A stretch of 64,000 nucleotides of DNA, from contig CM114271.1 of assembly GCA_050084515.1 (NCBI GenBank), forward strand, positions 33,232,001 to 33,296,000, read 5' to 3'. The notes beneath the pieces were generated by a model. It had not been told where the DNA came from and searched no databases. It saw only the letters and a list, made by a program, of their open reading frames with translations. Positions 1,208 through 57,340 of the stretch are shown piece by piece (positions within the stretch are counted from its first letter, which is position 1; each line of letters starts with the position of its first letter). The translations under genes were made by a program, and so were the position numbers. Source of the stretch: Blasia pusilla (taxonomy: Eukaryota).

Positions 1208-2987
1208 TTCCTTGCCTAAATACTCTATCTTTTGTAAGGAATTTCTATATTCATACTCTCAAGGCAATTCTTTTGATATTATAGAAGCTACTTCTTTTTA
1301 TGATAAATGGTGATTGAATTGATTTCCAATCATACATTTTTTTTATCCAAGCAGAATTCTCTCCAACTACAAAAGTTTTTTATTGAACCGAGTATTTTCC
1401 TACTCAATCTTGTCATGGTTTTTCTTATTTGCATTATTATCTTAAATGATATGACTATGTATGATTCTATTGCAATGTCGTTGGACATTACTCTATCTCC
1501 TTGCTTATTTTGTTTTACACGCTCTTCTTTAGTCGTTTCTTTTTTTTGTTTGTGGTTCCCCTCTTCATCTTCAATCTCTCCACTATTGTCTTAATACTCA
1601 TATCTCCATCATATTTTCTACATTTCTCCCCATCTTCATCTTATATCCTCTCCAAAATCTCCTCCTAAATATAGCTTTGATCTACCACTCTCAAAATCCC
1701 ACTTGTTTGTCATCCTTACATACCTCATCCAAACCTTTGTTTCTTAATCCCATCTTTTCTACCCTTATCCCTTCTTCTCCTTCTTCATTACCTTACTTGC
1801 CACAATATCGTCATTTATCATCATCTCATTGATTTTCCATTGCTCACCCTTAAAATCCTTCTTCTTCTATTTATGTCCATGCATAAAGTTTGTTTCTTAC
1901 TTCATGATAAAGAGATTGCTTAAATAGGGATCAAATGACTTGATGTTATTGTTGATGGATGCATGGTCCTTCAATCCCTGCCCCATATCTCCTTATCACA
2001 TAATCCCTACTTTAGCCTCATGCATGAGGGCATGGTTAAGAAAATCAATCTCCTTTGATATTTACATCAGAGTCTTCCCTATCCTAAATTCTACATAAGC
2101 ATAATTATTGCTATTTGTCATATTACACAACAAGCAACGCTTTTCCACTACAAATATTTAAGGGTAGAAAATATGGGAGTTGAAAAAAAGGTTTAACCAA
2201 CTAAATTTATGAGTTGGCTATCCTACACTAATTTTGTAATCCTAATGATCAAATGTAGAGCATTATAACTTTTGTGGGCTAATACTAGGATGGAAACCTA
2301 TTGTTATCTCATGACCAAGACATGAGTTGCAAAAGTAAGATGTGAGCCTTGATGCCTATCTTAGATGATGATGGTTTAACGTGAAAGAGTATCATCAAAC
2401 AATAGATGAATCTTGAAAAGAATCAAGTTCCATAAGATTTAGACTCTAAGAAGATTGCAACCTAGCTTGGAACCTGATGAAGGATTTGGGGATTTTCCAC
2501 ATTTGAAGTCATAACAACTAGAATCGAGATAAAATTTGGAAACATGGTATTCCATGGAATGTTTGTGAGAAGCTGATTCTATTGCACTAAAGATCTAGAT
2601 AAAAATATGAGAAATTTTTCGAAAAGTGCCAAAAGAATTTGGAATAATAGGTTGGATTAAGGCCCACAAGAATTGGCCAAAGAGAAATTCCTTGGATAAA
2701 GGGAAGGGATGGGATTGATGGAGTTCTCTAGAATTTTATATAAGGGGGAGAATCTTGGGGGGGAGTTTGGAACCTTAATCCCACCTTAGAAGCCATAAAG
2801 ATTGAACCAAAAGCACAAAATAGATTGAGAAGTTGGAATTAGATTCTTGATACCAAGCCAAGTTCAATTAGTCTTATTTTTGGGACCCTAACCTTAGATC
2901 TTCACCAAGGACCTCAAATATTGAGTTTTGGATAGAGAAAAATTTTAGGTCTATAGATTAGGCAATTAAGATTGCTAGGAACATAAG

Positions 2988-3103
2988 TGTGGTGCGCATA
3001 CACATCGCTACACAACATACATCGCTGTCACTGAACACACACGATCCCATGCTTACTCATGGCATCCAAACAACGAGACAAGAAGTACCAAAATATTTCC
3101 AAT
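2988..3103 (-). repeat. Repeat A2 (3' terminal repeat of element 1)
   Basis: Direct repeat of 3652-3779 (catacacat.gctacacaacatacatcg...gtaccaaaatat.tccaat). Confidence 0.9.
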
Positions 3104-3298
3104 AAAATAAGATCCAATCTCTCTCACAACACCATAATTCTCACGTGTGTGCACTCTCACATATCTCTCTCAATGTCAAACCAAAACCACTCTCCTAATG
3201 AGAGGCTTGGGTTACACTCACAAGGCAAGGGACCATAGCTTCCGCCGCCTCGTGCCAAAAGGTTCAACAAAGAGAGAATGAGCTCTTAAACACACACA

Positions 3299-3333
<35 letters not shown>

Positions 3334-3649
3334 TGAAGTATACCCCCCTCTCCCAAGCTCTCTTCATGTTAACCTATGCTCCCAAGTCACCTCCTTGGCT
3401 CTTGATCTGATGTAGGAGGTCAAGGGCCACTTACCAAAAAAAAGAAAATCGACCATATACTCAAAAGGGTACTTACCTAAAATAGTAAGTTCCTCAATAT
3501 GGCTCTAAATGAGCCGAAACGAAGGGGAAACTTGGTCTCTCAGATTTCCCAGGGCCTTAGCAGGTCATCCTCGACCTCCTAAGCCTGTCCTCTATTATTT
3601 GTGAAGGCGCTCTACTAGATCTCACTGATCTATCCTAAAGGATGTGACA
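3104..3649 (-). repeat. Repeat B2 of element 1, with (CA)n(CT)n expansion at ~3290-3331
   Basis: Direct repeat of 11622-12137. Confidence 0.9.
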
Positions 3650-3651
3650 AT

Positions 3652-3779
3652 TGTCGTGCCCATACACATGGCTACACAACATACATCGTTGTTACCGAAC
3701 ACACACACAAACATGCACGATCCCATGCTTACTCATGGCATCCAAACAACGAGACAAGAAGTACCAAAATATCTCCAAT
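3652..3779 (-). repeat. Repeat A1 of element 1
   Basis: Direct repeat of 2988-3103; joined to B2 by GTGACA-AT-TGTCGT. Confidence 0.9.
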
Positions 3780-3959
3780 CGTCCCCTTAGCTGGTGGTTA
3801 GATCCCTCTAACTCTAGATAGCCATCTATCCCTACCTACCATGATATACATCTCTCAAACGCTAAGAGCAAGAAGATCGGATGCTCATATAGCCCTATCG
3901 TTAGTCGCCTTCTTGTCATCCATGTCCCAGATGCAAGTCAAAATGTAGAACTACCTACG

Positions 3960-4110
3960 CTATGTACATCCGGGACACATCCATCGTCCCTCAAGAACCC
4001 TAGTGAGAGGTGGCGTCAGACATGCATATGCCATCCTCTCGAACACCCATCACATACTAGCATAGTGGCTGCACCACGAGCGAAATCACACAACATACAT
4101 CTCAAGCCTG
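3960..4110 (-). other. PHD finger at the integrase C-terminus (element 1)
   Basis: CMLC...MLVCDGCSRGWHM(frameshift)CLTPPLTRVLEGRWMCPGC, i.e. C4HC3 with the conserved W, then stop. Confidence 0.85.
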
Positions 4111-5100
4111 CAAGAACTACTGCTAAGCTCAGATCAAGTGTACCGTCAATGTTTGGAAGATGAAATGACGCATAGTTACGCACATGATCCTTCCAAACCA
4201 TACCACCACGTCCCTCCAATAAGAGAACACCGGATGGCAAAACCTCACGCACTTTCAAGATGATGCGCCCTGCAATCACATCCAAGATCGTGGGTGCCGT
4301 CTGTTGCAAATTGACATATTCTTTTGGATGAAACCTCCAATAGTAGGTCGATAATCACCTCCCCGAATAATTGCATACCTCAATATATCCCGATGTTGTG
4401 CAATCGCCAAGTTCTCAAACGCCATGGGCATCACTCTTCGAAACAACTCAACCCTCTGAGAACATGCTCGCATCCATACATCAGGGTCATCAAGGTTCAA
4501 CACCTCACCAACATCTCGACGAATGGCCGCACGTAAATCTGGCTCTCATCCATACAAAAGCAAGTACGGTGAGAAAGACGCTAAGGATGCATGTCTGCTA
4601 AATCTGTATCCCATTTCCAATCATGACAATTGGAGGGCCCAATCTCCTAGGTGACCTCTATGCAAGCCATACTTGCGTAATCCTCTCTTTATCATCTGCA
4701 CAACCCTCTCCGCTACTCCATCCGCCTCAAGATGATCTCGCAAAGTGGTGCGGTGGTCAATCAGTGCCTAATTACACAAGGCTTGAAACTCCCAGCGAAA
4801 CTCTGTACCCTGGTCTGTCAATATCTCAGCTGGTGTGCCATAATGACTCAACACTCGACCTAGGAAGGCATACGCTACTCCCTCACTCGCTTTGTCAAGC
4901 AATGCAACCAACTCTATCCACTTCAAGAATTGCTCGACCATCACCAACACATAACGACTATGGCGTTCCGTCAAAGGCAAAGATCTTGCAAAATCCAAAC
5001 TCCATCTATAACCTAAATCCATGGTCAGAAGTGGATGCAACTATGGAGTCGGAGCATTGAACAATGCTCGGACTTGATCACACACCATGCATCTCGCAAC
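4110..5100 (-). pseudogene. DDE integrase (degenerate; most of the HHCC region deleted compared with element 2)
   Basis: RWSLDFA...LVMVEQFLKWIELVAL...PAEILTDQGTEF; C-terminal 'LAIAQHRD..RY', 'ILKVREVLPSGVLLLEG'. Confidence 0.9.
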
Positions 5101-6480
5101 AAACTGCTGAGCATCCCAGGTCTATGTACCACTTGGAAGTGATACTCCCGCAATAAAAGATCCCACCTCGCAAGCTTCCCTATAAGCTTGTCGGACTCCA
5201 TCAACCACTTAAGTGGCTGATGATCAGTAATGATGGTAAAGGGATTGCCGAATAGATAACATCTGAAATGGGCGATAGCCCACACTACCGCCAAGCACTC
5301 ACCCTCATACGAGCTATACTTTGCCTCAATAGTGTTGTTCGAGCGACTAGCGTAAGCCATCATAAACTCTCTACCATCATCGTCATGCTGGGTGAGCACG
5401 ACTCCAAGCCCCAACATGCTCCAATCGGTATGCAACTCGAAAGGACGCCCCCTGATGGGTCTCCTCAATATGGGCGCGGACGTCAATATATCCTTGAGCA
5501 TTTGAAATGCTCTCTCTTGCTCATCCCCCTAGTGCCACTCCTAATCCACCTTGGTCAGCAAGGTCAGCGGCTTTGCAATCGAGCTAAAATCCTTCACGTA
5601 CCGTTGATACAAGTTTGCCAATCCTATGAATGTACGAACTCGACTCACATCCGTAGGGCGTGGAATACGCGAAATAGCCTCTGCCTTCATCTGCTGCACA
5701 CCAAGGCCCCTTGGATATATCGTATGACCCAGGTACTCAATCTGGTCGTAGAAGAACTTGCACGTGCCTGGATGTAGTTTCAGCCCATGTAACTTCAATC
5801 GTCGAAACACCTCCTCTAGATGTCGCTCATGCTCCTCAACCGTAGCACTAAAGACTACGATGTCATCAACATAACACATAGCAAAATCCAAACCTGCCAA
5901 GATCCTATCCATGACCCTCTAAAACTTAGCCGGGGCATTCTTTAACCCAAATGGTAAGAACCGCCAGTGGTACAAACAATCCTGCCTATGAGGATGGATG
6001 CCCCAAAATGCCGTCTTCTATCTGTCCTCCAATTTGATAGGCAATTGAAGGTATCCGACTCGCAAATCCAATGAACTGAAGACCTTTGCATGTCCAATCA
6101 CATCAAGGATCTCTTCAAGAACCCTACATATCGAATTTGTATGCCTATTGATAGGTCAATAATCTCCACACATCCGCCTATCTGTCCAGTTGCCATGCAC
6201 ATCCTTCTTGGCGGGCATGACAATGGCAGAGGCATACTATCCATACGACATCTCCACTAGTCCTACTCCAACCAAGTCTTGGCTCCTACTGTGAATCAGA
6301 GCCCTCTCCATGTCACTGTACCTATAGAATCGTCAGAAGATCGGTGTGTCACTTGACAACTCAATGCGGATCCTTGGACCCTTCAGCGATAGCCAAATCA
6401 TGCATACTAAATGCAAAAAAACTCATGTAACTCCTAAGAAACTGGTGTATCCAGCGCCGCTCTCCTCTTGTCAACTTAGG
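5025..6480 (-). pseudogene. Reverse transcriptase and RNase H (degenerate)
   Basis: RMCGDY, LDLRVGY, LPFGLKNAP, CYVDDIVVFS; RNase H FELHTDWS...YEGECLAVVWA...ITDHQPL. Confidence 0.95.
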
Positions 6481-6759
6481 GCCCATATCTGGCTCCCAAG
6501 TCTCCATCGTGATTACAGTAGGACTCTTCGGAGTGGGTGTCGGTGGTTGCTATGGTGCAACCTCATCTCAGACAACAAAACTCTCATCTCCACGTGTAGT
6601 ACCGGAACCACACTCGATGCTATGACTATCATCTCCTGGCATACCTGCAAAACATCCCAAGAAGTCCAAGGGTGTCTCTCTTGATCATCCCTAGTGTGTC
6701 GATCTCTTCGGATCTCGTCCCCTGCGACTTCCTCAACCGTCTCGGTCTAAGCTAAAAAT

Positions 6760-7580
6760 CCATGTCAAGCAGTTCAGGTCCATCGCTTGACCCAAGACAT
6801 GACGTCATGATGCCTCCGATAGTGACGATACTGCCGTCACTCATGTGGGGAATGCAATTGCTCGCTTACGCTCATTGGCCTTGGGCTCCACCAACCTCTA
6901 TACATTATCATCCCAAACCAAGCCAGATCCGGCCTCCTTGACTGCATAGGAAGCGGGAAAACTCACCAATGTGGGAAAGGCTACCCGTGACATGCCGATC
7001 TTGTTGATCATCGTACCTCATGTGGGACCAAGTTGGTCCACCAAAGACACGGGCGGTGTGCTCTAGAACCTACACTCACCGCATCTAAAAGCATTGTTGA
7101 GCCGATCCATGCACGCACTTGATGTGCACTCGTCACTACTCGTGATCTCGAATCGCCAAAGATCGGTACATTCTCCAGAATATATGCTGGAGGATTGATG
7201 CCCCTGCAAGTGTCACAAAATCCACATCATCTCCCAAAATAACATGGATCAAGTGTCAGCTAACCCGCTACCTTGGCCAGCATGCGATTGGCCCTTACAC
7301 GACCAACCAGCAATGACCAAATTTATGGCCCCTACCCGCTCCAAGTCCCGCGCCCCCAACAATGAAATATCCCGCGGTAGGGAACTGTGGTATCCATGGA
7401 CAGCGGACGTAGACAAAAAGTTGGGAAAACGGAGGCGTAACTGCGCCACATGGTGAAGTGAAGCGCGCCTTGCAACATCATCGATCTCCACATACAAGTA
7501 CTACTGCACGCGTACTTTTGCTTGCAAAACAACAGCTAACCCAATGCTGATCCCTCCAAAGAGATCCAACACCCAAATAC
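6760..7580 (-). pseudogene. Retrotransposon-borne DNMT3-like C5 cytosine methyltransferase domain (degenerate)
   Basis: Read directly from the minus strand, in order: motif I VLDLFGGI, II YLYVEID, IV NLVIAGWSCKGQSHAG (PC to SC), VI YILENVP, VIII SRAHRPCLWWTNL, IX ANERKRAIAFP, X RHVLGQAMD. Confidence 0.88.
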
Positions 7581-7919
7581 CCTCCTCTAGGTGCACCACA
7601 TAATGGGTGTGGTATCCAGGGCGTCATCATAGCACTCTCTACTACCTCTGATCCGTCACACTCTAGTGCAAAGGTCTCGCTCCACGCAGTTTGCACATGC
7701 TCAATGGCTAAGAGTCGAAGCTCCTTAGTTGAGCCCCAAAGTGGCACCTCTCCTCCACGGAGTGATGCGGCTACCATGATACTCCTCTCCATAGAAATGT
7801 TAATAACGGGAGTATCCTTTGCATGGACATGTCCCCCAATCAAGTCACTAGGCCAAGTGATGGCGCTGCTAAATGCTGCTAAGGTCGCTATCTCTCCTGG
7901 CTGTCGCTCAATCAATGCA

Positions 7920-8340
7920 TATGTAAATCGAACGGGTAATGATCTAAGGCACCCATCACCTAACTGCCATCATGGTCTGTAGGACGCTGACTCCTCCCAA
8001 TAATTCAGGGAAAACCCCATCGGGTACAACACTGCTCCACCAACCAAGACGTCGTAGGACTCTACATCGGTCACTATCGCCTTGGCTCGCACCATGGACT
8101 CATCTTTAGGATGTCTCGAGAGAATCCTCACCACGACCTCCTATCGGGATATACTATGTGGTACTTGCTCCACCCAAGGATGTATGGATCCGGAATGGAC
8201 AACGCTCCACATCAGCTCTCGTCAAGCCCAATCCTCTGAATGACGCTTTCCCCAACGTCAGGGGTTGCGCTCCTCAATCCAACAATACGAGTTGCGGACT
8301 AAAAGCTCTACCTCCTGGACTCACCAATTGGAAGACCTCT
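7920..8340 (-). pseudogene. Retropepsin-like aspartic protease remnant
   Basis: QLVLLD*GAQP (D-S-G-A with Ser codon mutated to TGA) at ~8261-8295; downstream 'YDVLVGGAVL' flap/GxD-like region. Confidence 0.7.
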
Positions 8341-9199
8341 CCCGAGTATCTAGCAACCCAACACCAAGAGAAGCCATGGCACGCTCTATCGCGGATCTAG
8401 CCGACATCTCCGCCATCCTAGCAGCCGTAGCCTACCATGAATCTGACGTGGACGGCCCGAGCATCCGCTCCAAGGGCAGGTCCATCACCTCCTCTACAAT
8501 CACCTCTGAACGTGATGCAAGAACTCCAACTCCACGCTCACATAGTGTAGCGGGAGCCAAAACACCTCGGCGGGCGTACCACCCAATGTCATAACATCGG
8601 AAGCAGAAAATAGCGGAGCACGGTACACCATCGTGGCCGCCCCCAACATCGTACTCAACACATGCTCCTCCGAGCATCAACAATAAGAGTCGTCGCATTC
8701 GTTCTCCCATGGCCCTCCATGTTTACATATCAATAACATCACCAACTCTCCGGGAACTCTGATCAAGACCCATTGATGAGGTTCTCATTGCCTCAAACAC
8801 CGTGAAAGACTGAGGAAGCCGGTCTGTTTCCTGCCTTCCCCTCGTTGTGGATCCAACTCTGCAGCTGCTCCACGCGTCACAATTGCGGCGGCCTCCATTT
8901 GGGCAACCCTGCATATCCAACCAAGATCCTCCATATCTCTAGCTGCTCCATATGATGTCAATGCCAGGGATCCGCCATCGGGTAATCTCAATGCCATAGG
9001 AGCAATCTGCTCAAGTAGCTGCTGTATCTGAGCAACCATCCCAACCTCACGCCCGACGTCTCCCTCGACTCGTCTAGGTGGTGGGACTCTACCTCCTCTA
9101 TGGGCAACTCCACCAACCTGTTGGGCAACTCCAGCTCCTTGTCCCCCAATGGGACCACATGGTGCACGATCTCTAGCCCACCCGGAACGACTACTCGCT

Positions 9200-10370
9200 T
9201 TGGTGCCCTCTCTGGCACCCTGAGTCCGGACGTAACTCAGGTTGTAAATTGAAACACCTGGCATGTGTGTGACCATATCTTTGACAATATAACACTGATA
9301 ACCTCTTGGTGCAGCACCATCTCCTCCTCCATGCAGAGGCACACGTCCATGACCCTAACGAGTGCAATTGCACTAATGATGGGCTCCACCACATGACCAA
9401 CAAGTAATGGTAGGCGACTGCTGGTGAGCTGCATATGAAGGCGTAGGTCTCTATGGAATGGCCTCTCGGTATCCTCCCTGCGCTCACGATACCACAGTCA
9501 ACCTATCTTGGAGTCCAAGTTGCTGCACTGGTGGTGCAGGCAATCGTGACTGCTCGCCTAGAACCCATGGTGGCTACGCTCTCCTCCGCCATGTTGCGCT
9601 CAATATTCTTGGCGGTCCTAAAAACATCTCTCAACGTAAGGGAGGTGCTCATAAGAAGCATCCCCTCCTGCACTTGTGTCCCCACGGTCCGGTTCAGCAT
9701 CGCATACCATGACTGGATAGCCTGAGCCTCTATCACCCCTAAGTGACGTTGATCAACCGACGCAAGCAAGTGTAAGCCTCACCCAAACTCTCACCCGGGC
9801 GCCTCTCAAATCGTGGATGCTCCCCCACATTTCCGTCCGTACCCCCTGGTAGCTCCCCTCATTTCAACAAAGAACTCAACCACAAGGTTGAACCTGGGAC
9901 AAACCCCACTAGCATAGTGCAACTGCTCCAACGCGATTGACCCCTCCTAAAACATCACTAGTGGAAGAGGAAGTAGCCTCTCCTGACTCCTCCTCCTCAT
10001 ATGGGAATGGCTCTGTCCATGACACATAGTGTGGATTATAGTAGAGTCACCATGCTTCAATCTCCTGGGCTTATATGTGGGAGAAATCATGGTAATTATC
10101 CATGGGCACCCCCTCTAAATGATGGAACATACTGTTCCATGCTGTAAACGGGTTGAACTCTGTAGAGTTCCTAGCCCGTGGTGAGTCACACCAACTCCTA
10201 AACTCCGCAATGAAGTCGTGTAGCTCTATAGTGCCTACAACACCCGAAAACCTATGCGGTTCTCTACCCCGATCGTCCATCCCGTACGCCCAACTGGTAT
10301 GACCACTCAATGTGTACGGTGGATCACTAATACACTCCTCTATATGCTCCCCCTTGTCTAAAGACGACAT
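9200..10370 (-). pseudogene. gag remnant with CCHC zinc knuckle
   Basis: Gag-like 'FSGVVGTIELHDFIAEFRSWC'; frameshifted knuckle C..CQRYGHTHARC at ~9255-9300. Confidence 0.7.
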
Positions 10371-10955
10371 AGAAGGAGATCAAGGTCGTCCCTCACGTCA
10401 AGACCCTCAAAACCTCGCACCACTCTAGGTAAACCCTACAAACCTCCTTGATGTGCGGTGCAGGTCGAGCGGTCCATTGCGGCACTGGCAACACGGAACG
10501 GCTAAAAACGGCATAGCACTCGAGAATGGGGTGCGGCACTAGGCGGCATACCCTCCTAAATCAACAATTCACATGCTCTGCTCCTTAGTGAAGAATCGGC
10601 TTCACAATCAAGATGATGCGGTACAGCCACGAGCGGCATGGCGTGGAAATTGGCGGCTACGGGCGTCACGATACGGTACTCGATCGTCGTCGAGCGGCTA
10701 CCAATCACAACATAGCAGCATGAAATGAAAACTCAAAACCATAACTCGAGGTCATCTGCCATCACTAGTTGATGACGAAACTGCGATGATGGTGGCGGCC
10801 AAAACAAAGTACGTGGTGGCGGTGCAAGTCAGAGGATCAACGGTCGTCGTGGAAGACCCTCCACTCTGTTATGGCGGCAATGAAAACCAAGGGTGGACAA
10901 TGGCCGAATGCGGCTCTAAGCAGCGCAAGACAGTGGCGGCGGCCGACGGTGGGCG

Positions 10956-11055
10956 GTTGACGGTGACGGTTGACCATCGATGGTGATGGCAGACCATCGA
11001 TGGTGATGGTTGACCATTGACGGTGATGGTTGACCGTTGACGGTGATGGCCAACG
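10956..11055. repeat. 20-bp tandem repeat (~5 copies) in the element 1 leader
   Basis: Unit approx. GTTGACGGTGATGGTTGACC. Confidence 0.8.
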
Positions 11056-11621
11056 CCAATGCGGCGCTGGTTTAGGGTTTGAACAATTTAACCCTAGAAA
11101 TCGCCTAGCAATGGAAAATTTGCAAGATTGACCATAAATTTTTGTCACAACTCCAAATTACGCACCGTTTGTTGTACAGTGTGCACAACTTTAGGATCTA
11201 CAACAATATCAAAAACTATTTTGAATCAAATATTTCAGTAAAAACTGACAGGGACTGTCGTAAAGCCCAATATCTCTTTCTCCTACACAAAATTCGGCGG
11301 CTCTTCCGTGCTGATTTCTCTCAACGAAAATGTAAAACCTATGAGAACACAAATCAGCAAGCTACATGGTGCTCTTGAGAGCACGAGCATGGAGCAATCT
11401 GCGCCCATACTCAATTCCTATCGAAAATTGGGCAGCACTTCCGCATGCCACTCTCCTGTACAAAAAAATTAGCAAAGCAAAATAGCAAACTCGCACGGCT
11501 CTTGCTCCGGTGAGCACTACCATAAGCCATGAAGTGGGGAAAACAGTCCTCCAACTTGCACCAAACATCGAGCAACGACCAAGCTCCCCTATGAAGCTCT
11601 CTCACTCACTCATTCTATCTT

Positions 11622-12137
11622 TGTAAAATAAGATTGAATCTCTCTCACAACACCATAATTCTCACATGTGTGCACTCTTATATATCCCTCTCAATGTCAA
11701 ACCAAAACCACTCTCCTATTAAGAAGGTTGGGTTACACTCACAAGGCAAGGGACCATAGCTTCCGCCGCCTCGTGCCAAAAGGTTCAACAAAGAGAGAAT
11801 GAGCTCTCAAGCTCTCTCTCCTTGAAGTATTACCCCCCTCTCCCAAGCTCTCTCCATGGTAACCTATGCTCCCAAGTCACCTCCTTGGCTCTTGACCTGA
11901 TGTAGAGGTCAAAGGCCACTTACCAAAAAAAGAAAATCGAATATATACTCAAAATGGTAATTACCTAAAATATTAAGTTACTCAATATGGCTCTAAATGA
12001 GCCGAAACGAAGGGGAAACGTGGTCTCTCAGATTTCCTGAGGCCTCAACAGGTCATCCTTGACCTCCTAAGCCTATCCTCCACTACTCGCAAAGGCGCTC
12101 TACTAGATCTCATCGATTTATCCTAAAAGACGTGACA
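11622..12137 (-). repeat. Repeat B1 (5' terminal repeat of element 1)
   Basis: High by-eye identity to 3104-3649; in sense starts TGTCACG and ends CTTATTTTACA. Confidence 0.9.
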
Positions 12138-12599
12138 CAAGCGTCATTTCACGTCCGTAAACTATCAAGGAAGTCCATCCCAATAAAATGAGAAATATCA
12201 AAGGTAAAAACTTGTACATACGTAAAATTGTGTGCCTTGGAATAACATCTAACATAGTCGATGTATATTCCTATAAGTACACACAATCTCTACAACCTCC
12301 TCATCACTATGGATTTCAAAACATTGATTGACTCCTTGTAGACCACTAGATTTCAAAACTTACCATCTAAAAGTTATGTTGACGTTGATGCATTCTATTG
12401 ATCCAACATAGTAAGAAAAACACAAGAAAGCATCTGTGTATCAATATGGCACCATCTTCTCATTGCTCCCTCCATACCTTCGAGTTTATGTCTTATTTAT
12501 TTGATATGTACATAGGTTGTGGCTGAACTATCTATCTCCTCATTTAGCCTATAAACCACATAAAAATTATACTCTTATTATAATAGAGCCCACTTAATA

Positions 12600-13350: not shown

Positions 13351-13900
13351 AAACCAAATAGTAGGTTTTTACTCCACTTTTTACATTGTTTTTCTTATTT
13401 AGTTTTAATTGTTGTTAGTTCTCCAAACCATCGTTGGAAGTCTTTCATTTCAATTAGATTACTAGTTATTTCTTAAATAAGATTTTTAGTTGTGGTTAAG
13501 TTAATTATGCTCATGATGTGTTGGATTGCTTATAGTGTATTGGATGATTAATCAGCTTACTCCTTCCACTCTGCATTAACATGCAAGGGTCTCTTTTGCT
13601 ACCCCTTCCCTTACTAGGAGATCCTCTATTTATTTTATGCTTCTTTTATTCACTTCAACTCGTGCCCTCTAAGGCCATGTGGCTTGAGATTAACTCCTAC
13701 ATACTTAATTAACCTTTGATGATATCTTAATCAAATAAGAAGGAGATGCAAATCGGTGTGGAGGATGCTCCAAGAAAAAATGTACCACAAACAATGACAT
13801 GTTGGTTTCAACCACCTTTTTCACTTCATGTGTATTCTAATAAGGTGTTGCAGAATGAGCACCTAGTTTAATAGAAGTTGTAGACTAGCTTTGCATCACT

Positions 13901-48080: not shown

Positions 48081-49536
48081 TGTGTGAGTTAGGATAGGGT
48101 ACTAGCGTCTAGATTCCTTAATAGCACAGGGTGGACGAGGCCCAATATGGCGTTGTAGATTGATTAGTTTTAGGCCGGGTGTGCCATTTTTACTCTTATT
48201 TTTACATGAGAAAGAAGCAAGGGGGCAGAGGGGAATTCTTTGTTTACAAGTAGACAAGCAAGTTGCCTTGACAGGGAGGCCTGGAGACGCTGGTTAGCGT
48301 GTATGTGGGTTTTCAGTTTTGTTCAAAGACCATGTGCGGAAGCGATGTCCGTTTTTCCATAGGTTTCGCTGACATAGATTACTGAGGGAGAAGAGCCAAG
48401 TGTGACCACATAAAATTATGAATGATTGACAAGAAAATTGCTTATTCATATCGTCTAGAGTTCCATGGTATAGAGAGGGAGCCGGCGCTAGGCGCATACA
48501 TATGTGTACCCAAAACGTGCAAGAGGGTTGAAGGAATGAGTTCAAAATAGAGCAAGGTCGATGCATTTGGAGGAGCGTGAAGACGAACTTGTACGGAGCC
48601 GTTCACATGCATATAAGGGCGGGGAGACCCTACATAGGGCCACATACCTTAAGCAGGGAAGAAAAAGAGCTGCACGCGTATAAGGTGTGCGTAGAGCGTG
48701 GTTTGAAGGAGAGGCCTGACCAAGTTCGAAGGCGGGAGCGCCTTGGAGGCAAAACGCGGGATATTGTGAGAGCGGGAACAACCAAGGAGGCTCCATAGGG
48801 AGCTGTGGTGTTTGCACATGTGGAAATGAGTACTAGAGCCATAGAGGGAGACTTGAATGTATAGGGCACGTGTAGTAAATCATTACTACGTGTCCGTAAG
48901 GTTACAAAGGTACATGGGTACACGTGCATCCATATGGGATGGCCAGTTCCCGTGTTGTAAGGGTCCTGCATTGGAAGGAGAAAACAAGAGTTGCATAGTG
49001 TAGTACGCCGCGTTCGAGAACATGGTTCGGGAGTTGTTTTGGAATTGTCGGAATATTACTGGTATCATTGATATTTTCTTGGACATTATTTTTACGTGTC
49101 GGTCGTAGCCGGGAGATTTGTAGCTTTCCAATTAATTTTCTTGTTGGTTAAAATCCGAAAATTCTTTTTCTATTTTTCTTATTTCCAGGGCTGAATTTTT
49201 TTCTCTGCTAATTTCCGACCGAACTTTGTGAAGCTGGCCAAAAACCGGTTTTTCCTAACTCGGTCGGAATTTTTTTGTTCACACACACCTTATATTCTCC
49301 ACATCCCTGCAATGCTCAAAAACTTGATTCCTGATATCAAATTCTTCCCCTGAAGTAGACATGCAAATCTTCTAATACAATAAAAAAATTTATCCTTGGC
49401 AGGAGTTGAACCTGACAGAACTCCCACCAGTTGGGAGCCAAGGATCCTACCCCTCTTGAATACTTGGAGCCATGAGGCTCCAAGTATTCAAGAAGGGTCC
49501 TACTTCCTAAAACCTAAATGATCAAAGTCTTCTAAT

Positions 49537-51738
49537 CTAGAGGGTTTCAATAACTTCAACTTCCTCATTCGGGGAGATGTATCTATCAGGATTTGCAAAC
49601 AAGTACCTAAAATGAGCAGAATTCTTCCACAATATCACAGACTCAGACAACATCTCTTCATAATCAGAGGAAGGTCCTTCTAAGGCAATCCTCAAGATCG
49701 CATTTAAATACTTTGTGGTCAACCTATTACGAGATTTAATCTTAATCATGTTTTGAATGGAAAAGGCTCTCTTACATATGGCAGTACTAACACATTGGAC
49801 TCTAGCTATATTTGCCAAAATCAAAAATTAGAAAACTTACATTGCAATGAGGGACTCCAACTTACCATCGCCCACAAGTCTCTGAAGTTGCGATCCTTCC
49901 ACTCAGTGGTAGCCATCAATTTGAAAGATTGAAACTCTTGCTTAACAATCGAAGAATTAATGATAGCCGGTAGCAACACACCCCGTAATGGCAATTGATT
50001 TCCAAAAAACCACACAAATCATCTAAATCTTTACACCCCCAACTATTCAATCCCACTTGCCGAGAAGGCATGTGCAAAGGATTGAGTATTCTCATAGATC
50101 CAATCAAGTTATTATCTCAAAATCACTCTTGTAAAGATGTACACACACTTTCAGCAAACCTTTTCTGAAAGAATAATGCAGCCACTAAGTCCCTTCCGGT
50201 CCGATCTCGAGACATAGCAATGCTAAGAAACTTGTTTCCCCTCATCTCGGATTGTAAACGACGAAGATAACCACCAGGTGGCCCAAAATCAGGAAGTATA
50301 TGGTAACATGTATCTTCAGAGAAGGTGGAGGCATTCAAGTCATGAGTTTCCATGACAAAATTCATGGTAATCCTAGCTATCTCTGAATTCACAATGCTCC
50401 CTATAGTACTAACATCCACAAACTTGTACTGAAATATCTTACTTAGATTTGCAAGCATGGAAAGTATGTAAGCCAAAAAGTATAGTTGATAGATCATTTG
50501 GAATGATCTCAACCTGTTAATTTCAGCATTCCCATTGTCCTTTGAAGGGGAAATATCTCTAAAGTATGTCAATACTGATTCTAGAGAATCAGACAAGATG
50601 GTCACAACTTGCCTATGGGATAACCATCTAATCTTGTGGTATCTCTTCATAACTCGTTGGGGGTCATTGAATTTTTCCTGCAACAATGCTAGAATTGTTT
50701 TCCTCTTTGACGACCTTCTAAAGTAACCAGCTACTGCATTGAGAATCGAATCAACTTCAGAGGATATTGACTTGCAATCAGGAGCTTTTGCAGCAAACAA
50801 AGCCGCCAAATTTGTTCTATGGGCTATACAATGAACTAAAAGAATATAGGGATTTACCTTCTCCTTCATTTGGGAGGCCACCCTTGTCTGGCTACCAACC
50901 ATTGTAGAAGCTCCATCTGAACCAAATGCTACCATTTTGGAGAATTCTAACCCTCCATCTTTGATTAGTTGCAACGAACCTTCAGTAATAGCATTGGAAC
51001 ATTTTAATTCGCAACGAAGTAGTCCTAGAAAACAACATTTTGCCTGGCCCTCTTCAATGAAGGTGGCAAACACAACCAAATGCCCTGTTACAGATATGTC
51101 AGTTGACTCATCGATCATAATTCCAAAGAAAGGAGAGGCTTGAACTCTCACAAGAGTTCTTCTAAACAGAACTTGGCTAATGAAGTAACACATCTCACAA
51201 CAACTCTTTTCATCTTGATATAAGTATCTGGTAATAGGGGCATTCATTGATAACATTAACTTACAAAGGCTGGGAAATTTCAAAAATGGCATAGCCTCCT
51301 TTACAAGGAAGTATGCGCACTTAAACAATGTCAACAGAGCGATTTCATAAGTGCGGTTGGTGGTGGCAATGGCCTTGGCCATTACCTTCTTACCCCCATG
51401 TGCAGCCCATGCAAGCTTCATGTGCTCATTAGACTTCGCATGATCAGTGAAGGCTGAAACCTTACAGTTTATTGATCCATCTCTAGCAAACACACTCTTC
51501 CCTTTCCCCTTCTTACAAACTTTACAAAATATTCTACCAAGGGTTGAATCCCACTCAATCCAATCATACCATACATCCTTCCATGCTACACAAACTTTCC
51601 AGGTACATCCGCACTGCTTCCTCACGGAGGCGGCTCATCTCTATCATCAGATGAGCCAAACAATGCGATAATGTCAAGCTCGTCATTGATTAGTTCCTTA
51701 CCTAGCAAGGAAATCATTGTCTTTTGTCTCTTGGCCAT
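49537..51738 (-). pseudogene. hAT transposase, ZNF862/DUF4371-like (few lesions)
   Basis: FCKVC...H zinc motif; FFGIMIDESTDIS; FGSDGASTMVG; VHCIAHRTNLA; IRWLS; dimerization domain STAICKRAFSIQNMIK..RNRL. Candidate terminus CAGGGCTGAATTTTTT at 49186; other end near 52880 unclear. Confidence 0.9.
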
Positions 51739-52975
51739 GTGTACTACTGGGCACTAGGCAACTATATGGACTACAATCTGAGAATGGAAGAAGGGCTACC
51801 CCACGGGAATAAGCTAGAACACAGGACCTGCAACGAGCTTGAGAACTTCTCGAGGAGAAGTTGCGGCGGCTGCACGGCTTGGAAAGGCCCTTGTTAATGT
51901 AGGCAATCTACGAAGCACCAGAGCAAACCGATGTAGACTTGCTAAGGAAAAAAAATAAGAAATACATCCCGGCTGCCTGAAAGAACACAGTCCGAGAACA
52001 TTGGAGGGCAGCAGCCTTTCCAAGAATCACGGACTTGCCACACATTGAGCGGCCCCCACCTCAATCCCTAGCAGCAAAGCTACCAAGCCCACCGAAAATG
52101 ACCAAGCCAAGGTTGCCAAGCAGCAATGCGAGTAGCAAGCTTGCAGGATTGGGTAGCACAATAGCAGCAAGATGGAGCGCTAGGAGCGGAGCTACAAAAG
52201 ATTTTGCAAAAGGAGAACTAGAGGTGAGAGACAAGCACTGGAGCAACAACGCGAATGATGTCTGTGAAGGGCAGAAACGTGAGCACCGAGCGGCGAGCTT
52301 GCATTATCCAGCAGTAGTAGCAACAATACGAAGCACTGGAATAGCAATGCAAAACTTGGGGAGAGACGGCCACTCGGGCAAGGAGAATGGCAGAAATACG
52401 AGCGGCGAGAGCAGCGAGGCAGAGCAGCGAGGCGGAGCAACGAGGCACAACAGTGAGACAAAGGATTGGGAGCGGAGACTCCACAAGTGGAGAACATGCA
52501 AATGAGGCCCCTAAGGAGTATGCCACTTCTACTTCCAACCATCCGATTCAGATCGGACGGCTGTGCTTAGTGTGCCCTAAATGAGAGGACGGTCTAGATC
52601 CAACCGTCTCCCCCTTAGCGAATCCTGAGCGTCACTCCATCACTCATACTTTTCCGACAGCCAGCACTCTAGGCGGCCAAAAATTGTCTGCCGATAGTAG
52701 CACTCCAGCCAATAACCAGTTTCCCTACCCAGATAGTGCCACTTTCCGACGTCTTCGTGGCAAGAAACAGTCAAATTCTGGCGCCTGGTCGGCTCGCCTG
52801 ACAGTTACCGGTATCTACCCAATTTCACCAAGAACTGCTGCTGGGAAGTTCTTTTGCTGGTCAAAATTTTCAAAAAATTGCCGGCCGGGGCTACTCATTA
52901 CCCCAGATCCCTCCGAACATTGTTCAAGAAGTGGGGAAGGGCTCCATAGGGAGCCGTACAAGGTGGGGGCCGTCA

Positions 52976-53165
52976 ACGGTTGATGATCAGTGATAAGTGT
53001 GAAAGGGTTGCCGAATAAATAACACCTGAAATGTGCCATGACCCACACTGCAGCCAAGCACTCTTCCTCATAAGAAATGTACTTCACCTCTGGAATGTTG
53101 TTTGATCAGCTCGCGTAAGCCACAACGAACTCCCTCTCCTCGTCATCCTTCTAAGTAAGCACTGA
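52976..53165 (-). pseudogene. Inverted RNase H fragment of the Gypsy family
   Basis: SYEEECLAAVWVMAHFRCYLFGNPFTLITDHQPL; antisense homolog of ~55419-55610. Confidence 0.88.
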
Positions 53166-53689
53166 ACGTCAAGGAAGAGGAGCGCAAGTGCCTGAGTTGG
53201 GGTACGGTTGGAGAGAGGATAGGTCATTAGCGCGCAATTGGGGAAGCGGGGGTAGCCGAGACACGAAAGTAGGGGCATGTATTTTGGTAAGGCAGGAAGA
53301 AGAGAGAGAGTCAGGCTGATGGCATAGGGAGTTGTGTCGCTCCCACGTGGAAGGTGAAGGGCGTCCATAGGGACGCGTGAAAGGAGTGTGAAGGAATAGC
53401 AAGATGTTCGTGGAATGGAATCCAGGCTCCATAGGGAGCCCTGTAGAGCCATTATGGCTACGAGATATGTGTCCTAGTACGGTGGTACCTCATAGGTACG
53501 TGAAAAGGAGGTGCGCACGTTAAGGCGCATAAGGATGAGAGAGGGCGCCTGTAAAGCCCATGAGCAGGGTTAAGAGTTTGGGGCTAAGCGGGGTTGGACG
53601 GTGGGAAGACAAGCATGCTCCAAGGTTGGTATAAGGGCGTGGTACGAGAAGAGCAGCCAGGTGGAGTGACTCAATAAATATGGAAATGA

Positions 53690-53987
53690 ACGTAGGACAT
53701 ATATATATTTTTATATCCCAATAACATTAAAAAACACGTTATCATTGGAGCATGAGATCACAAAAACACACTAGTTGTTATTTATGACTTTGTATTACTA
53801 GGCAAGTGAAAGAAGTACGACTAGTCTTTACGAAAGGGTATTGGTAACTACTTTAGAAATAAGTACATGACTAGGTGAGTTGTGCAACCTTAAATTTTAG
53901 GACTAAACCATTTTAGTCATACTTTGAGTCATTCTTTCGGCAAGTCATTTAAAGCCTAGTCATAAAATCCACACAATTCTTCTAGTG
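53690..53987. mobile_element. CACTA terminal fragment
   Basis: Ends CACACAATTCTTCTAGTG; agtcat subterminal motifs as in the large CACTA. Confidence 0.75.
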
Positions 53988-54305
53988 ATGGATAGTTAAC
54001 CTTGGTATGGTTGAGCAGAGACGGATGCGAGTGTCATCCATGTGTCACGTCCACGAGTCGGAGCATTGCCTATAGGGTTTTTATAGGCATTGGCTGGGGG
54101 AGGGACGAGGAGAGATAGGCACCCATGGACTTCTTGGGACGTGGTTTGAGCAGAGAGTGCGAAGGCAGCAAGAGCAACACACGTTCATTTTTTGGATGTG
54201 GAGCATGGTGTAGGAGGTCAGAGTGGAGTGGTTGTTGTGGAGGTGGCTAGGACTGCTACATAGCAACCAAAGCCGGAGGTTACGTCCTCTCTAAGTGAGG
54301 TCACG

Positions 54306-57300
54306 ATGGAGACTTGGGAGCCCGTGATAGGTCTCAAGTTGACAAGAGGAGAGCGACGGCAGGCTCATAGATTTTTGAGAGGGCATGTCAGTTGTTTTGC
54401 CTTTAGTATGAGAGACTTGGGTATACTGAAGGGTCCTCGGATACGGAATGAGTTGGCTAGTGATACGCCGATATGTCGTCGACCCTACAGGTACTTTGAT
54501 ATGGAGCGAGCCTTGATTCAGAACAAGATTCAAGACTTGTTGGAGGCACGACTTGTGGAGTTATCGCATGGGGAATATCCAACTGCCACAGTCATGCCAA
54601 AAAAGAAGGATATATATGGCAATTGGACGGATAGGCGGATGTGTGGAGATTACCGTCCTATCAATCGACAGACGAGTTCAGATCAGTACGCCATGCCTAC
54701 TCCTGAGGAGATCTTTGATGCAGTAGGGCATGCAAAGATCTTATGTACTTTGGATCTCCGTTCTGGCTATCATTAGCTTCCTATAAGGTTGGATGACAAG
54801 GAGAAGAAAACATTATAGGGGATAGATCGGTTTGGGAGAGATTGTTTGTATCAATGGCAGTTCTTACCATTTGGGTTGAAGAATGCACGTGCGGAGTTTC
54901 AGAGAGTGATTGATAGCATTCTGGCTAGCTTGGATTTTGTATGATGTTACATAAATGATATTCTTATCTTTAGTTCCACGGTTGAGGAGCATGAGCGACA
55001 CCTGGAGGAGGTGTTTTAGCAATTGCAGTAGCATGGACTGAAGTTACATCCTGGCAAGTGCAGATTCTTTTAGGAGCACATTGAGCACTTAGGGCACACC
55101 ATGTACTCAAGCTGGTTAGGTGTTCAAAAGACAAAGATAAAGGCTATTGCGCAAATTCCACGCCCTACAGATATGAGTCAAGTTTGAACATTTCTGGGAT
55201 TGGAAAACTTCTATCAACGGTATGTCAAGGATTTTAGTGCGATCGTGAAGTCTTTGACCTTGCTAATGAGACTTTATTAGGTTTGGCTATGGGGAGATGA
55301 TCAGGAGCGAGCATTTCAGGAGCTCAAGGATAACTTGCCTTCCTCACCCATTTTACAGAGACCGATTAGGGGTCGCCCATTCTAGCTCATACAGATTGGA
55401 GCATGTTGGGTCTAGGAGCAGTGCTTACTCAGAGGGATGATGAGGAGAGGGAGTTGGTTGTGGCTTACGCAAGCCGATCGAAGAACATTGCAGAGGCGAA
55501 GTAAAACTCCTACAAGGGAGAGTGCTTAGCTGAGTGTGGGTTGTGGCACACTTCAAGTGCTATCTATTTGGCAACCCTTTCACACTTATCACTAATCATC
55601 AGCCGTTGAAGTGCTTGATGGAGTCCGACAAGCTTACGGGAAAGCTTGCCAGGTGGGCTCTATTACTACAAGAGTATGAGTTTGAGGTGGTTCAAAGGCC
55701 AGGTCGGCTGAACTAGGATGCGGATGGGTTGAGTCATAACCCATGTCTGAGTCACAAAGACAATACAGGAGCTCGATGGCACAGAGAGAGTGATGAGGAG
55801 ATGGTGCCCAGTTGGCATGCATCTGCCTATCTTTTTTGGTTGACTATGGCAGGTCAGCCCCAGGTGGTGACTCTAGTGGTGGGGCCAGATGATGAGTTTT
55901 TGGATCCGGAGGTTAGTGAGGAGGCGACAGGTAGTCATGATATCCATGACGACGAGGAGGTTGTGAAGTTCTTGCATATTGGTGTCATAGTAAGCACAGT
56001 GAGTGTTAGGGAGCAGGATCGGATTCTAGGAGAGCAACTTCATCCTTCCCATCGAGCACGTGTAGTGCGACATGAGGAGTTGGGGAATTTTGGAGTAAAG
56101 CGTACTTACAACTTACTTCAGGTTTAGTATTGGTGGGGCGGCATGCATACTGGGGTACAAAAGTTTGTAGCCAGATGTATGGTATGTGATCGAGTGCGAG
56201 CATCCTTCAATGTTGCCACTTCGGAATTACATCCTTTTCCGATTATGGATTTAGATTATCGGTGGAGTTTAGACTTTGCGAGACCTTTGACATTGACAGG
56301 GCGTCATCACAGATACATGTTGATCATGGTGGAGCATATCTCCAAGTGGATAGAGTTGGTAGCACTACAGGACGAGGCGAGCAAGGGAAAATCTTATGCA
56401 TTTCTAGATCATGTGCTTAGTCACTTTGGTGCACCAATGGAGATGTTGATCGACGAGTGCGTCACGATATTGATCGAGTGCGTGCACCGAATTCAAAATA
56501 CGTCTGAGTTTTAGGCCTTGTGTGATTATGCGTTGATAGATCACTGCATTACGTCTAGAGATCATCTTGAGGCGGATGGGTTGGCAGAGAGAGTAGTACA
56601 GACGGTGAAGAGAGGATTGCGCAAGTATGGCTTGCAGCAAGGATAGTTGAGGAGTGGGACCTACAGTTGCCATGGTTGGCTATGGGTTATCGCTTCAGTC
56701 GACAGGCATCCTTGGGGTCATTTTCATTGTACTTTTTGCTCTTTGGGAGAGAGCCAAATTTACCTGCAGCTATTTGACGTGACATAGCGGAGGTGGTAGA
56801 TCTTGATGATCCAGATGTGTGGGTACAAGCATGTTCTTAGAGGGTGGAGATTTTTTGTAGAGTTATGCCCATGGCCTTTGAGAAATTAGCTATTGCTCAG
56901 CATAGGGATACATTGAGGTACGCAACCATTCGTGGAGGAGGTTATCGTCCAGGGATTAGGAGGTTTTATCTTAGAGATTACGTCTATTTATAGCATGTGG
57001 CATCCATGATGCTAGGTGTTACTGTAGGGGGCACGATTCTACGTGTGCACGAGGTGTTATCGATCGGGGTCCTCATGTTGGAGGGACGGGATGGTATGGT
57101 TTGGAAGGATCATGTGCGCAACTGTGCACATGTCACCTTCCAGACGTGGACGGTGAGTGGATCTGAACTTCGTAGTGGTACCTACGGGCTTGAGGTGTAT
57201 GTTGTGTGGATCTACGAGGGATGTAGCCACCATGTTGGTATGTGATGGTCGTTCTCGAGGGTGGCATATATCATGTCTGACCGACCCCCCCTCTTGATTT

Positions 57301-57340
57301 CGTTCCCATGGGACGATGGATATGTTTGAGATGTATATAG
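54306..57340 (+). pseudogene. RT-RNaseH-integrase-PHD of element 2 (degenerate)
   Basis: RRMCGDYRPIN, TLDLRSGYH, LPFGLKNA, YINDIL, TDWS, ITNHQPL, HEELG..CMVC, RWSLDFA; PHD LRCMLC...MLVCDGRSRGWHISCL at ~57190-57340. Confidence 0.93.

Follow-up and report, generated by a model that had tools for sequence, protein, structure and literature searches.

Textbook retrotransposons with long terminal repeats (LTRs) and retroviruses integrate linear DNA, the LTR ends of which serve as substrates of the integrase, and their proviruses carry two identical LTRs. Split direct repeats are treated as a hallmark of elements that use a tyrosine recombinase. We report here on a retrotransposon, E1, and its family, found in a 64,000-nucleotide (nt) stretch of the Blasia pusilla genome (assembly GCA_050084515.1, contig CM114271.1, positions 33,232,001 to 33,296,000 of the forward strand; this whole stretch is called the window below, and positions are counted from its first letter). 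E1 has split direct repeats together with the reverse transcriptase (RT), RNase H, and DDE integrase of a Ty3/Gypsy element. PAT-like and Ngaro elements are tyrosine-recombinase retrotransposons whose split direct repeats follow the order A1-int-B1-A2-B2, int being the internal region (PMC4157794), and by that definition the repeat topology of E1 is the same, as a preliminary description of the locus had rightly pointed out. TOC1 of Chlamydomonas has been cited as a non-autonomous DIRS element (PMC9940879), and a DNA methyltransferase (DNMT) and a tyrosine recombinase coexist in SymbioDIRS-Dnmt3 (PMC5890265).

The combination of a DIRS-type repeat arrangement with Gypsy domains was given in 2018 for KnitGypsy-Dnmt3 of the alga Klebsormidium nitens, in the legend of Fig. 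4c of de Mendoza et al. (PMC5890265), and a 2026 preprint names a group "streptophytes (Gypsy-DNMT3)" (10.64898/2026.05.21.726589). The preliminary description had suggested that E1 may reflect an undescribed replication mode; its reading as a DDE-integrase element with split repeats is supported and extends to the whole family, whereas "undescribed" does not hold for the layout itself, which stands in the 2018 legend. Beyond that legend, our literature searches, which did not cover the figures and supplements of PMC5890265, found neither a mechanism by which a DDE integrase gives the split layout nor later structural work.

In the sense direction E1 has the layout B-int-A-B-A. We found this layout to be the rule in a family that has a normal DDE integrase and makes 4-bp target duplications, and sequence comparison indicates that it is generated by replication and is not that of a rearranged copy. 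We take B-int-A-B-A to be the normal replication-competent form of the family, of which E1 is a dead copy.

Layout and coding content of E1

E1 lies on the minus strand, from 12137 to 2988, and reads in the sense direction B1, coding region, A1, the dinucleotide AT, B2, and A2. Its features, in sense order, are the following.

12138..12141, minus strand: 5' flank tetranucleotide, CTTG in sense; probable 4-bp target-site duplication, with three of four bases equal to the 3' flank
11625..12137, minus strand: B1, the 5' repeat; starts TGTCACG (integrase-type left terminus) and contains U3', a TATA-like box at about 11832-11827, the predicted RNA start, and R/U5
11788..11803, minus strand: B1 segment CTCATTCTCTCTTTGT, complementary to the primer-binding site over 16 nt with 1 mismatch (8 nt exact)
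11609..11624, minus strand: putative self-priming primer-binding site ACAAAGATAGAATGAG, immediately 3' of B1
7676..11608, minus strand: decayed region of leader, gag, and protease, the CCHC-like knuckle of gag lying around 8432-8722; from translations and from tblastn of P0011 residues 63-355 on 8551-7676
6748..7584, minus strand: C5 cytosine DNMT domain with stops and frameshifts; tblastn of P0011 residues 381-694 at 56-71% identity, also of P0045 and P0078
5106..6560, minus strand: RT (YVDD) and RNase H; Pfam RVT_1 2e-13 and RT_RNaseH 2.6e-34, and tblastn
4339..5105, minus strand: DDE integrase core (rve) and C-terminal part; Pfam rve 3.2e-9, and tblastn
4022..4336, minus strand: C-terminal PHD finger region; weak Pfam PHD match (E 0.018), and tblastn of P0078 residues 1391-1495
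3780..3788, minus strand: polypurine tract AAGGGGACG, directly 5' of A1; probable plus-strand primer site
3652..3779, minus strand: A1, the putative first part of the functional LTR (A+B); ends ...GCACGACA
3641..3660, minus strand: internal palindromic junction of the A end (..CACGACA), AT, and the B start (TGTCACA..), with both integrase-type termini head to tail
3104..3649, minus strand: B2, the 3' copy of B; TATA-like box 3342-3338, (GA)n(GT)n at about 3290-3330, self-primer segment 3267-3282
2988..3103, minus strand: A2, second and terminal A; meets the end of B2 at 3104/3103 and itself ends ...CACCACA, the right integrase-type terminus
2984..2987, minus strand: four bases of 3' flank, reading CTTA in sense and paired with CTTG on the 5' side

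A repeat search and BLAST matched B1 (11622-12137) to B2 (3103-3649) at 86% identity over 548 columns (E = 0), and A1 (3652-3779) to A2 (2988-3103) at 85% over 128 columns (E about 7e-40). Direct reading of the sequence placed the end of A1 at 3652, AT at 3651-3650, and the start of B2 at 3649; homology to B stopped at 11625, and the primer-binding site occupies 11624-11609. The split repeats given for E1 in the preliminary description were thus confirmed, with the end of B refined to 11625. Neither before nor after B1 was there any A-like sequence, and the window held no further copy of the A or B of E1 except for a microsatellite match and an A-like stretch of 40-60 nt near 58.1 kb, where a second family member described below has its 3' end. 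In B2 alone, the TATA-like box is separated from the self-primer segment by the (GA)n(GT)n expansion, which B1 lacks. E1 as a whole is decayed and rich in indels, its longest stop-to-stop frame being 189 amino acids (aa), and it carries a short tandem-repeat stretch around 10840-11157 within the leader/gag region.

Pfam recognized RVT_1, RT_RNaseH, and rve in E1 in Gypsy order, so that the Gypsy-type RT, RNase H, and DDE integrase claimed for it earlier are indeed present. The stop-free pieces of E1 themselves gave no Pfam call for DNMT, gag, or protease (no significant match for the gag/protease pieces of 7676..11608), and its DNMT, gag, and PHD regions were assigned via intact relatives, by tblastn of the relatives' proteins onto the window together with Pfam on those proteins. 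The stretch 7584-6748 aligned at 56-71% to the part of Marchantia P0011 that passes PF00145, the C5 DNA methylase (35.1 bits, cut-off 22), and the PHD of P0078, homologous to 4336-4022, also passes Pfam. PF00145 was found in 2 open reading frame (ORF) pieces of relatives as well. Relative to the family, the H2C2 zinc-finger region of the E1 integrase is deleted at about 5108-5110, as indicated by loose read ends at 5108/5110 and by the second member, which is longer there by about 450 nt. When the RNase H piece of E1 was used as the query, 180 longer proteins were matched at E <= 1e-20. The closest named matches were from liverworts (Riccia, Calypogeia, and Marchantia; 72-85% identity), with Klebsormidium nitens proteins at 58-59% and Closterium at 51%; PF00145 occurred in several of the matching proteins and a C-terminal PHD finger in many. 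Judged by these identities, the host would probably be a liverwort. The best Protein Data Bank (PDB) matches of the relative P0078 were Ty3 Gag-Pol 7q5b (2e-94), Ty3 RT 4ol8, and the integrase of prototype foamy virus (PFV), and a stop-free DNMT piece of relative L047 matched no PDB sequence at E <= 0.01; the Pfam match to the DNMT spans motifs IV-VI only.

Taken together, these comparisons make E1 a decayed Ty3/Gypsy element with the order gag-protease (PR)-C5 DNMT-RT-RNase H-DDE integrase-PHD, and because DNMT-bearing relatives match it, we place it in the streptophyte Gypsy-DNMT3 clade. As in Ty3/Gypsy elements generally, its PR-RT-RNase H-integrase order and its RT and RNase H are of Gypsy type, and a DDE integrase goes with a short target-site duplication; the two identical LTRs with TG...CA outer ends as integrase substrates are lacking, and B-int-A-B-A or B-int-A is found instead. 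It shares with Gypsy-DNMT3 elements both a C5 DNMT within the Gypsy pol polyprotein and DIRS-like repeats next to Gypsy domains, and with DIRS/Ngaro elements the split direct repeats but not the tyrosine recombinase. The preliminary description was right on layout and Gypsy domains and had overlooked the DNMT, the PHD finger, the second copy, and the B-int-A form.

Recurrence of the layout, termini, and target duplications

The second family member in the window, E2, is 71-74% identical to E1 over RT to integrase and has the identical repeat layout. Its features are as follows.

48081..58178, plus strand: E2, 5' end truncated; from BLAST, tblastn, and sequence reading
48081-48203, plus strand: B1', truncated 5' B
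48204-48215, plus strand: primer-binding site
54253-57354, plus strand: RT-RNase H-integrase-PHD
57406-57416, plus strand: polypurine tract
57417-57556, plus strand: A1', followed by GT
57559-58038, plus strand: B2'; TATA box 57841-57848, self-primer segment 57874-57885
58039-58178, plus strand: A2'

E2 interrupts an array of a 180-bp satellite (47815-48082 and 58179-58688), the flanks of which, when joined in silico, align collinearly with intact units; a (TG)n stretch where E2 meets the flank obscures its target duplication, and insertions of foreign DNA have scrambled its 5' half.

Relatives were collected by scanning metagenome contigs with an alignment of 16 polyproteins, which found 435, of which 80 loci were kept, and A, B, and pol were mapped on all 80. 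The order pol-A-B-A was present in 18 of the 80 rows, corresponding to 14 distinct loci once identical ones were merged (L003 with L020, L050 with L051, and L063 with L064 and L065), and variants of it in L011, L039, and L043 brought the total to 17 distinct relatives with the layout. These span two or more subfamilies, and their boundaries are exact to the base. At another 13 rows (12 distinct loci, L071 being the same as L072), pol-A was followed by at least 800 nt of unrelated DNA, the repeat-free form B-int-A; the rest of the loci either were too short or had diverged beyond the reach of the five A/B probes. All 17 visible 5' ends of relatives, a count that is not de-duplicated, had a single B only. 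Neither the 80 loci nor E1 and E2 included a copy whose two ends carry one and the same repeat unit, be it A-B or B-A; the preliminary description had named ordinary B+A LTRs on both sides of most full-length copies as what would refute its view. Repeat ages agreed within elements, the B1/B2 and A1/A2 identities being 92 and 94% in L036, 91 and 92% in L064, 92 and 94% in L075, and 86 and 85% in E1.

Complete copies start with TGTCAYG and end with ...CRYGACA, a 7-bp inverted repeat of the TG...CA type, and are flanked by a duplication of 4 bp, a length that the preliminary description had asked to have scored. Measured from the B1 start to the end of the last A, the duplication was perfect in 9 of the 10 complete relatives. 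Those of form B-int-A-B-A (Form I) had TCTC (L003), AAGG (L036), GGTC (L075), CCAC (L011), and the imperfect pair ATTA/ACTA (L064, 3 of 4 bases), and those of form B-int-A (Form II) had TGTG (L009, on the assumption that TCTCATG is its mutated B start), ATTA (L010), CCAA (L044), TGTT (L047), and CCTC (L067). The flanks of E1, CTTG and CTTA, agree at 3 of 4 bases. The combination of 4-bp duplications with TG...CA inverted termini is the signature of a DDE integrase. Since the duplication couples the B1 start with the end of the last A, B1...A2 was inserted as one piece.

These results bear on two alternatives. The first holds that E1 is a one-off, an ordinary LTR element (B+A or A+B) from which one A disappeared and to which another was added by tandem insertion, unequal recombination, or deletion. 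Its age, its many indels, and the nested insertions in the window, such as those in the 5' half of E2, would suit such a history. The base-exact recurrence of the layout in E2 and 17 relatives across subfamilies, the coupling of B1 start and A2 end by the duplications, and the lack of any locus among the 80 with A-B or B-A at both ends speak against it, and we give it hardly any credence.

The second alternative is a DIRS-like cycle, in which a tyrosine recombinase, encoded by a decayed or unrecognized ORF or supplied in trans, would act via a closed circle, with the rve integrase being vestigial. The topology, identical to the A1-int-B1-A2-B2 of PAT and Ngaro, would fit, and so would the pairing of a methyltransferase with RT, which DIRS elements have and which SymbioDIRS-Dnmt3 extends to a DNMT and a tyrosine recombinase in one element. 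We scanned 88 ORF pieces of at least 60-70 aa from the sense strands of E1, L036, L047, and L064: none matched Phage_integrase (PF00589, E <= 0.01), whereas the same pieces yielded RVT_1, RNase H, rve (in 3), Integrase_H2C2, PHD, DNA_methylase, and a CCHC knuckle. Many integrase columns are invariant across the 16 polyproteins, an apparent constraint that sits badly with a vestigial enzyme. Tyrosine-recombinase elements are not known to make a target duplication, and the perfect duplications in 9 of 10 relatives with TG...CA inverted termini tell in the same direction. We therefore regard a DIRS-like cycle as highly improbable.

Several loci deserve separate mention. Within the scrambled 5' half of E2, an intact 503-aa ORF (50123-51634, minus strand) matches zf-C17orf113 (5.9e-13) and, weakly, DUF4371, and resembles a transposase of the hAT/TTF type. 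There are also fragments of other, more distantly related Gypsy RT/RNase H sequences: one adjoins the 5' end of E1 (12407-13379, minus strand), and another is inverted inside E2 (52920-53258, minus strand). Among the relatives, L030 has a 230-nt tandem duplication (8535-9002) just 3' of pol in place of A-B-A, and L066 has an A-B-A block (2147-2716) between two pol segments that looks like tandem elements.

Primer sites, junctions, and a proposed replication cycle

A run of at least five G was present 0-4 nt 5' of A1 at 25 of 27 relatives' loci as well as in E1 and E2; at the other two there was a deletion or GGAGGAGA. With this polypurine tract, plus-strand DNA should begin at the first base of A. 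At the other end, the 10-17 nt that follow B1 were exactly complementary to a segment of B at 9 of the 17 visible 5' ends (0-3 of 500 shuffles matched), and the segment lay 31-34 nt downstream of the TATA box in these nine. The corresponding complement is 12 nt in E2, a length reached by 1 of 1,000 shuffles, and in E1 it comprises the 16 nt with 1 mismatch listed above, its B1 segment lying about 29 nt downstream of the TATA-like box; we predict that 11788..11803 is the RNA 5' end and self-primer of E1. Minus-strand initiation is thus most readily read as self-priming of the Tf1 type, with the 5' end of the transcript predicted from the TATA spacing, and the eight 5' ends without a full complement are read as decayed versions. 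Self-priming in plants has been reported for Tcn1 and TAR (PMC6317226). As the polypurine tract abuts A1 and the self-priming site abuts B1, the functional LTR would be A+B, in which B appears to be U3'-R-U5 and A the first part of U3.

Form I copies have two internal junctions. The A1-B2 junction was in every case a palindrome, ...CAYGACA-NN-TGTCAYG..., in which the integrase-type termini stand back to back. The middle two bases are GC, GT, AC, or AT in the reads (AT in E1 and GT in E2), and the variants are read as CAGCTG decayed by transitions. It is pure speculation that the element's own DNMT might act on the CAGCTG core, a CHG context. At the B2-A2 junction of all Form I copies, the base that ends B beside the primer site is fused to the one with which A begins after the polypurine tract, and we infer that this junction represents the two ends of a canonical complementary DNA (cDNA) joined to each other. 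It was nearly constant within a family (TTCAAT joined to ATACATG, or CATTTTC joined to A(G/A)TTGTGG), with fillers of 19 nt in L003, 5 extra nt in L049, and 1 extra nt in L054. L011 retains only the last 29 nt of A2 with its perfect duplication CCAC, and of B2 L039 retains no more than the first 78 nt; in both, a large deletion begins or ends precisely at the B2-A2 junction, and such one-sided deletions are expected if incomplete DNA ends are joined. On this anatomy, B-int-A-B-A is exactly what (A-B)-int-(A-B) would become if its ends were joined, in a 2-LTR-type form, and the left LTR were opened at its palindrome.

Outside the DNMT-bearing lineages, too, the internal palindrome seems to occur, judging from L018 and L019, a DNMT-less, PHD-bearing distant relative with the palindrome GTGACAGCTGTCATG. 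The B of L018 is about 1.4 kb long, starts TGTCATG, and is directly preceded by GTGACAGC. The L019 contig (12650 nt) has a 3518-nt terminal redundancy of 100% identity, giving a period of 8847 nt, which could reflect a circle, a tandem copy, or a cycle in the assembly graph.

Raw reads labelled as the same species were compared with E1 at 85% likeness, from one whole-genome shotgun (WGS) run and three RNA-seq runs. About 1% of the WGS run already gave a DNA depth over E1 of about 500-2,700 (the two end bins, made up largely of flank, had about 230-370), so that the family must be very abundant. The RNA was strongly strand-specific, in the sense of the element, and biased to the 3' end. Passage from the A end into GC and the B start (TGTCATGACC...) was seen in 269 loose-end reads of RNA, with an agreement of 0.75-0.89; the agreement of DNA at the A end was 0.41, flanks being mixed in. 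The joint of the A end, two bases, and the B start (12137 to 2988) was found in 86 DNA reads and 6 RNA reads, the 86 DNA reads coming from other copies and having GT, AC, or GC as middle bases, while the joint of the B end and the A start (3779 to 3103) was found in 64 DNA reads and no RNA read. RNA coverage started where B2 ends and A2 begins: 13 of 26 molecules and 5 of 13 started at 3098, and 8 of 39 at 3121. These small numbers fit a transcript that stops at B2 and leaves A2 out.

A separate joint, 5321-6393, occurred in RNA only (35 reads in three runs, no DNA read). It skips 1071 nt of RT/RNase H with non-canonical ends and has 8 extra letters in 16 reads; either transcription of a deletion derivative or unusual splicing may account for it.

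From the observed anatomy, duplications, recurrence, and sense transcription, and from the lack of a detectable tyrosine recombinase in the pieces scanned, we infer an order of events and a palindrome-cutting enzyme that could account for the layout. Transcription would start about 30 nt downstream of the TATA box of B1 and stop at about the end of B2, giving an RNA of the structure R/U5-primer-binding site-coding region-polypurine tract-A-U3'-R in which A2 would be dispensable. The minus strand would be primed in the manner of Tf1, by the RNA itself, whose first 10-17 nt would pair with the site directly 3' of B1, and the plus strand would begin at the G-rich polypurine tract directly 5' of A1. 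Reverse transcription would thus yield an ordinary linear cDNA, (A-B)-int-(A-B), whose LTR is A+B and whose integrase-type termini, TGTCAYG...CRYGACA, would lie inside the LTR at the boundary of A and B, back to back in the palindrome ACA-NN-TGT. The integrated copy would correspond to this cDNA once its two outer ends, the B end and the A start, had been joined and the left LTR had been opened at its palindrome, and the DDE integrase would insert the opened form with a 4-bp target duplication. The outer ends might be joined in a 2-LTR-type circle, in a head-to-tail dimer, or by host repair after the integrase complex has cut one palindrome and inserted both ends. Integration at the internal palindrome, together with joining of the outer cDNA ends, is in our judgment probable. 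Whether the DDE integrase generally uses an internal palindromic attachment site in the LTR and not the free cDNA ends, with every replication-competent provirus being a permuted, joined-end ("2-LTR") one, is a wider claim that we regard as evenly balanced.

The candidate in which a 2-LTR circle is opened at a random palindrome proved incomplete: it predicts the mirror form B-A-B-int-A to be equally common, and this was seen at none of the 17 visible 5' ends. The absence of the mirror form calls for an asymmetric step. Such a step might arise if, following the second strand transfer, the left LTR is double-stranded well before the right LTR is; an integrase complex on the left palindrome could then cut it, hold both new ends, and insert them, and host repair would join the outer ends, with incomplete synthesis or resection leading to the L011 and L039 types. 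B-int-A copies would be recombinants between A1 and A2, analogous to solo LTRs, or insertions made via the palindromes of both LTRs; their perfect duplications fit either.

The existence of these B-int-A copies, 12 distinct ones with perfect duplications of their own, also admits a composite reading, in which B-int-A is the basic element, and B2-A2 a separate one, small and non-autonomous, that shares its termini and inserts preferentially at its right end. B-A does carry both integrase-type termini. Nevertheless, the Form I duplication couples B1 start with A2 end and none surrounds B2-A2, only 2 nt separate A1 from B2, and A1/A2 and B1/B2 are equally old within elements; on the standard scheme of reverse transcription, moreover, a B-int-A transcript should be unable to regenerate the U3' of B. 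We consider this reading improbable in the extreme.

The main rival to joining of cDNA ends is a templated junction, in which B-A is copied in each cycle, for instance from a read-through RNA that includes A2 or by an end-to-end template switch of the RT, and the integrase acts on a linear B-int-A-B-A with ordinary ends. The near-constancy of the junction within families is what it predicts, the mirror permutation missing from all 17 5' ends could be explained by an asymmetric RT step, and RNA coverage does run a few nt into A2, to 3098. Conversely, the standard first jump of self-primed strong-stop DNA reaches the R of B2 and never copies A2, no primer site was found 3' of A2, where the flanks are unrelated host DNA, and the one-sided deletions of L011 and L039 and the filler of L003 resemble end joining; the B-A joint in 64 DNA reads and no RNA read points weakly the same way. 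We judge a templated junction unlikely.

Several observations weigh against integration at the palindrome with joined outer ends. Every copy examined is decayed, and the 5' end of E2 is not a canonical terminus. An exact complement of at least 10 nt is lacking at 8 of the 17 5' ends, and the RNA 3' end was read from few molecules, in which A1 and A2 reads of other copies are inseparable. The near-invariant B-A junction fits precise cDNA ends but equally a templated junction, and the mirror form is absent. Finally, the scan for a tyrosine recombinase was made on sense-strand pieces of at least 60-70 aa only, and one acting in trans is possible.

Other window features and comparison with known systems

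Elsewhere in the window, a 4.4-kb array at 24111-28560 consists of about 147 copies of a 30-bp unit with 72% matches; it is strongly C-rich on the plus strand, with a GC skew of about -0.74, and shows higher-order periods of 72-142 bp at its left edge. At 34666-35248 lies a tandem repeat of 153/217 bp in which AGTCATGA motifs are frequent, and at 45791-45943 a (CT)76 microsatellite that is perfect.

What this analysis adds is the anatomy of the termini, duplications, primer sites, palindrome, and joined-ends junction; the layout with Gypsy domains was already known in an alga. The family is transcribed as well as abundant and appears to span charophyte algae to liverworts, and its anatomy makes the in vivo use of an internal or circle-junction site by a retroviral-type integrase testable in a plant system. 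Circle junctions of the IS3/IS911 type are abutted inverted repeats, and general use of an internal attachment site, if true, would give IS3-type circle-junction transposition its counterpart among retroelements and would link LTR elements mechanistically to the split-repeat DIRS/PAT/Ngaro elements. LTR finders that expect paired LTRs will miss or misclassify such elements, B-int-A copies included.

Elements of the Tf1/Sushi group, which includes the plant Tcn1, have ordinary paired LTRs whose ends are the integrase substrates. Like the E1 family, they have no tRNA-type primer site, and the bases just 3' of the 5' repeat can pair with those that begin the transcript (PMC6317226); this likeness concerns the self-priming trait. 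The same paper (Neumann et al. 2019) makes no mention of Marchantia, Klebsormidium, or PHD, which suggests that the family is absent from plant reference sets such as REXdb, and a bias toward paired LTRs may explain that absence.

PAT and Ngaro elements share with E1 the repeat topology and the position of the internal repeats downstream of the coding region, and the DIRS group has a methyltransferase. They use a tyrosine recombinase and no DDE integrase, whereas the E1 family has rve, 4-bp duplications, and TG...CA inverted termini, and its methyltransferase is a C5 DNMT and not Dam-like as in the DIRS group. KnitGypsy-Dnmt3 is like E1 in its Gypsy LTR-type polyprotein, its inserted C5 DNMT, and repeats arranged as in a DIRS retrotransposon (PMC5890265). 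It comes from another host, E1's closest RNase H matches being the liverwort proteins and not those of K. nitens, and the passages on it in that paper give no termini, duplications, primer sites, mechanism, B-int-A form, internal palindrome, or self-priming.

Retroviral integrases cut the palindromic LTR-LTR junction of 2-LTR circles, as reported for PFV (PMC1180852) and human immunodeficiency virus type 1 (HIV-1; PMC1905944). There, as in the cycle proposed for E1, a DDE enzyme acts on inverted ends that stand back to back, CA-NN..TG, inside a DNA molecule. In retroviruses, however, the palindromic junction is a by-product of the joining of LTR ends and the proviruses are unpermuted, whereas in the E1 family the palindrome is encoded in the LTR and the copies are permuted as a rule.

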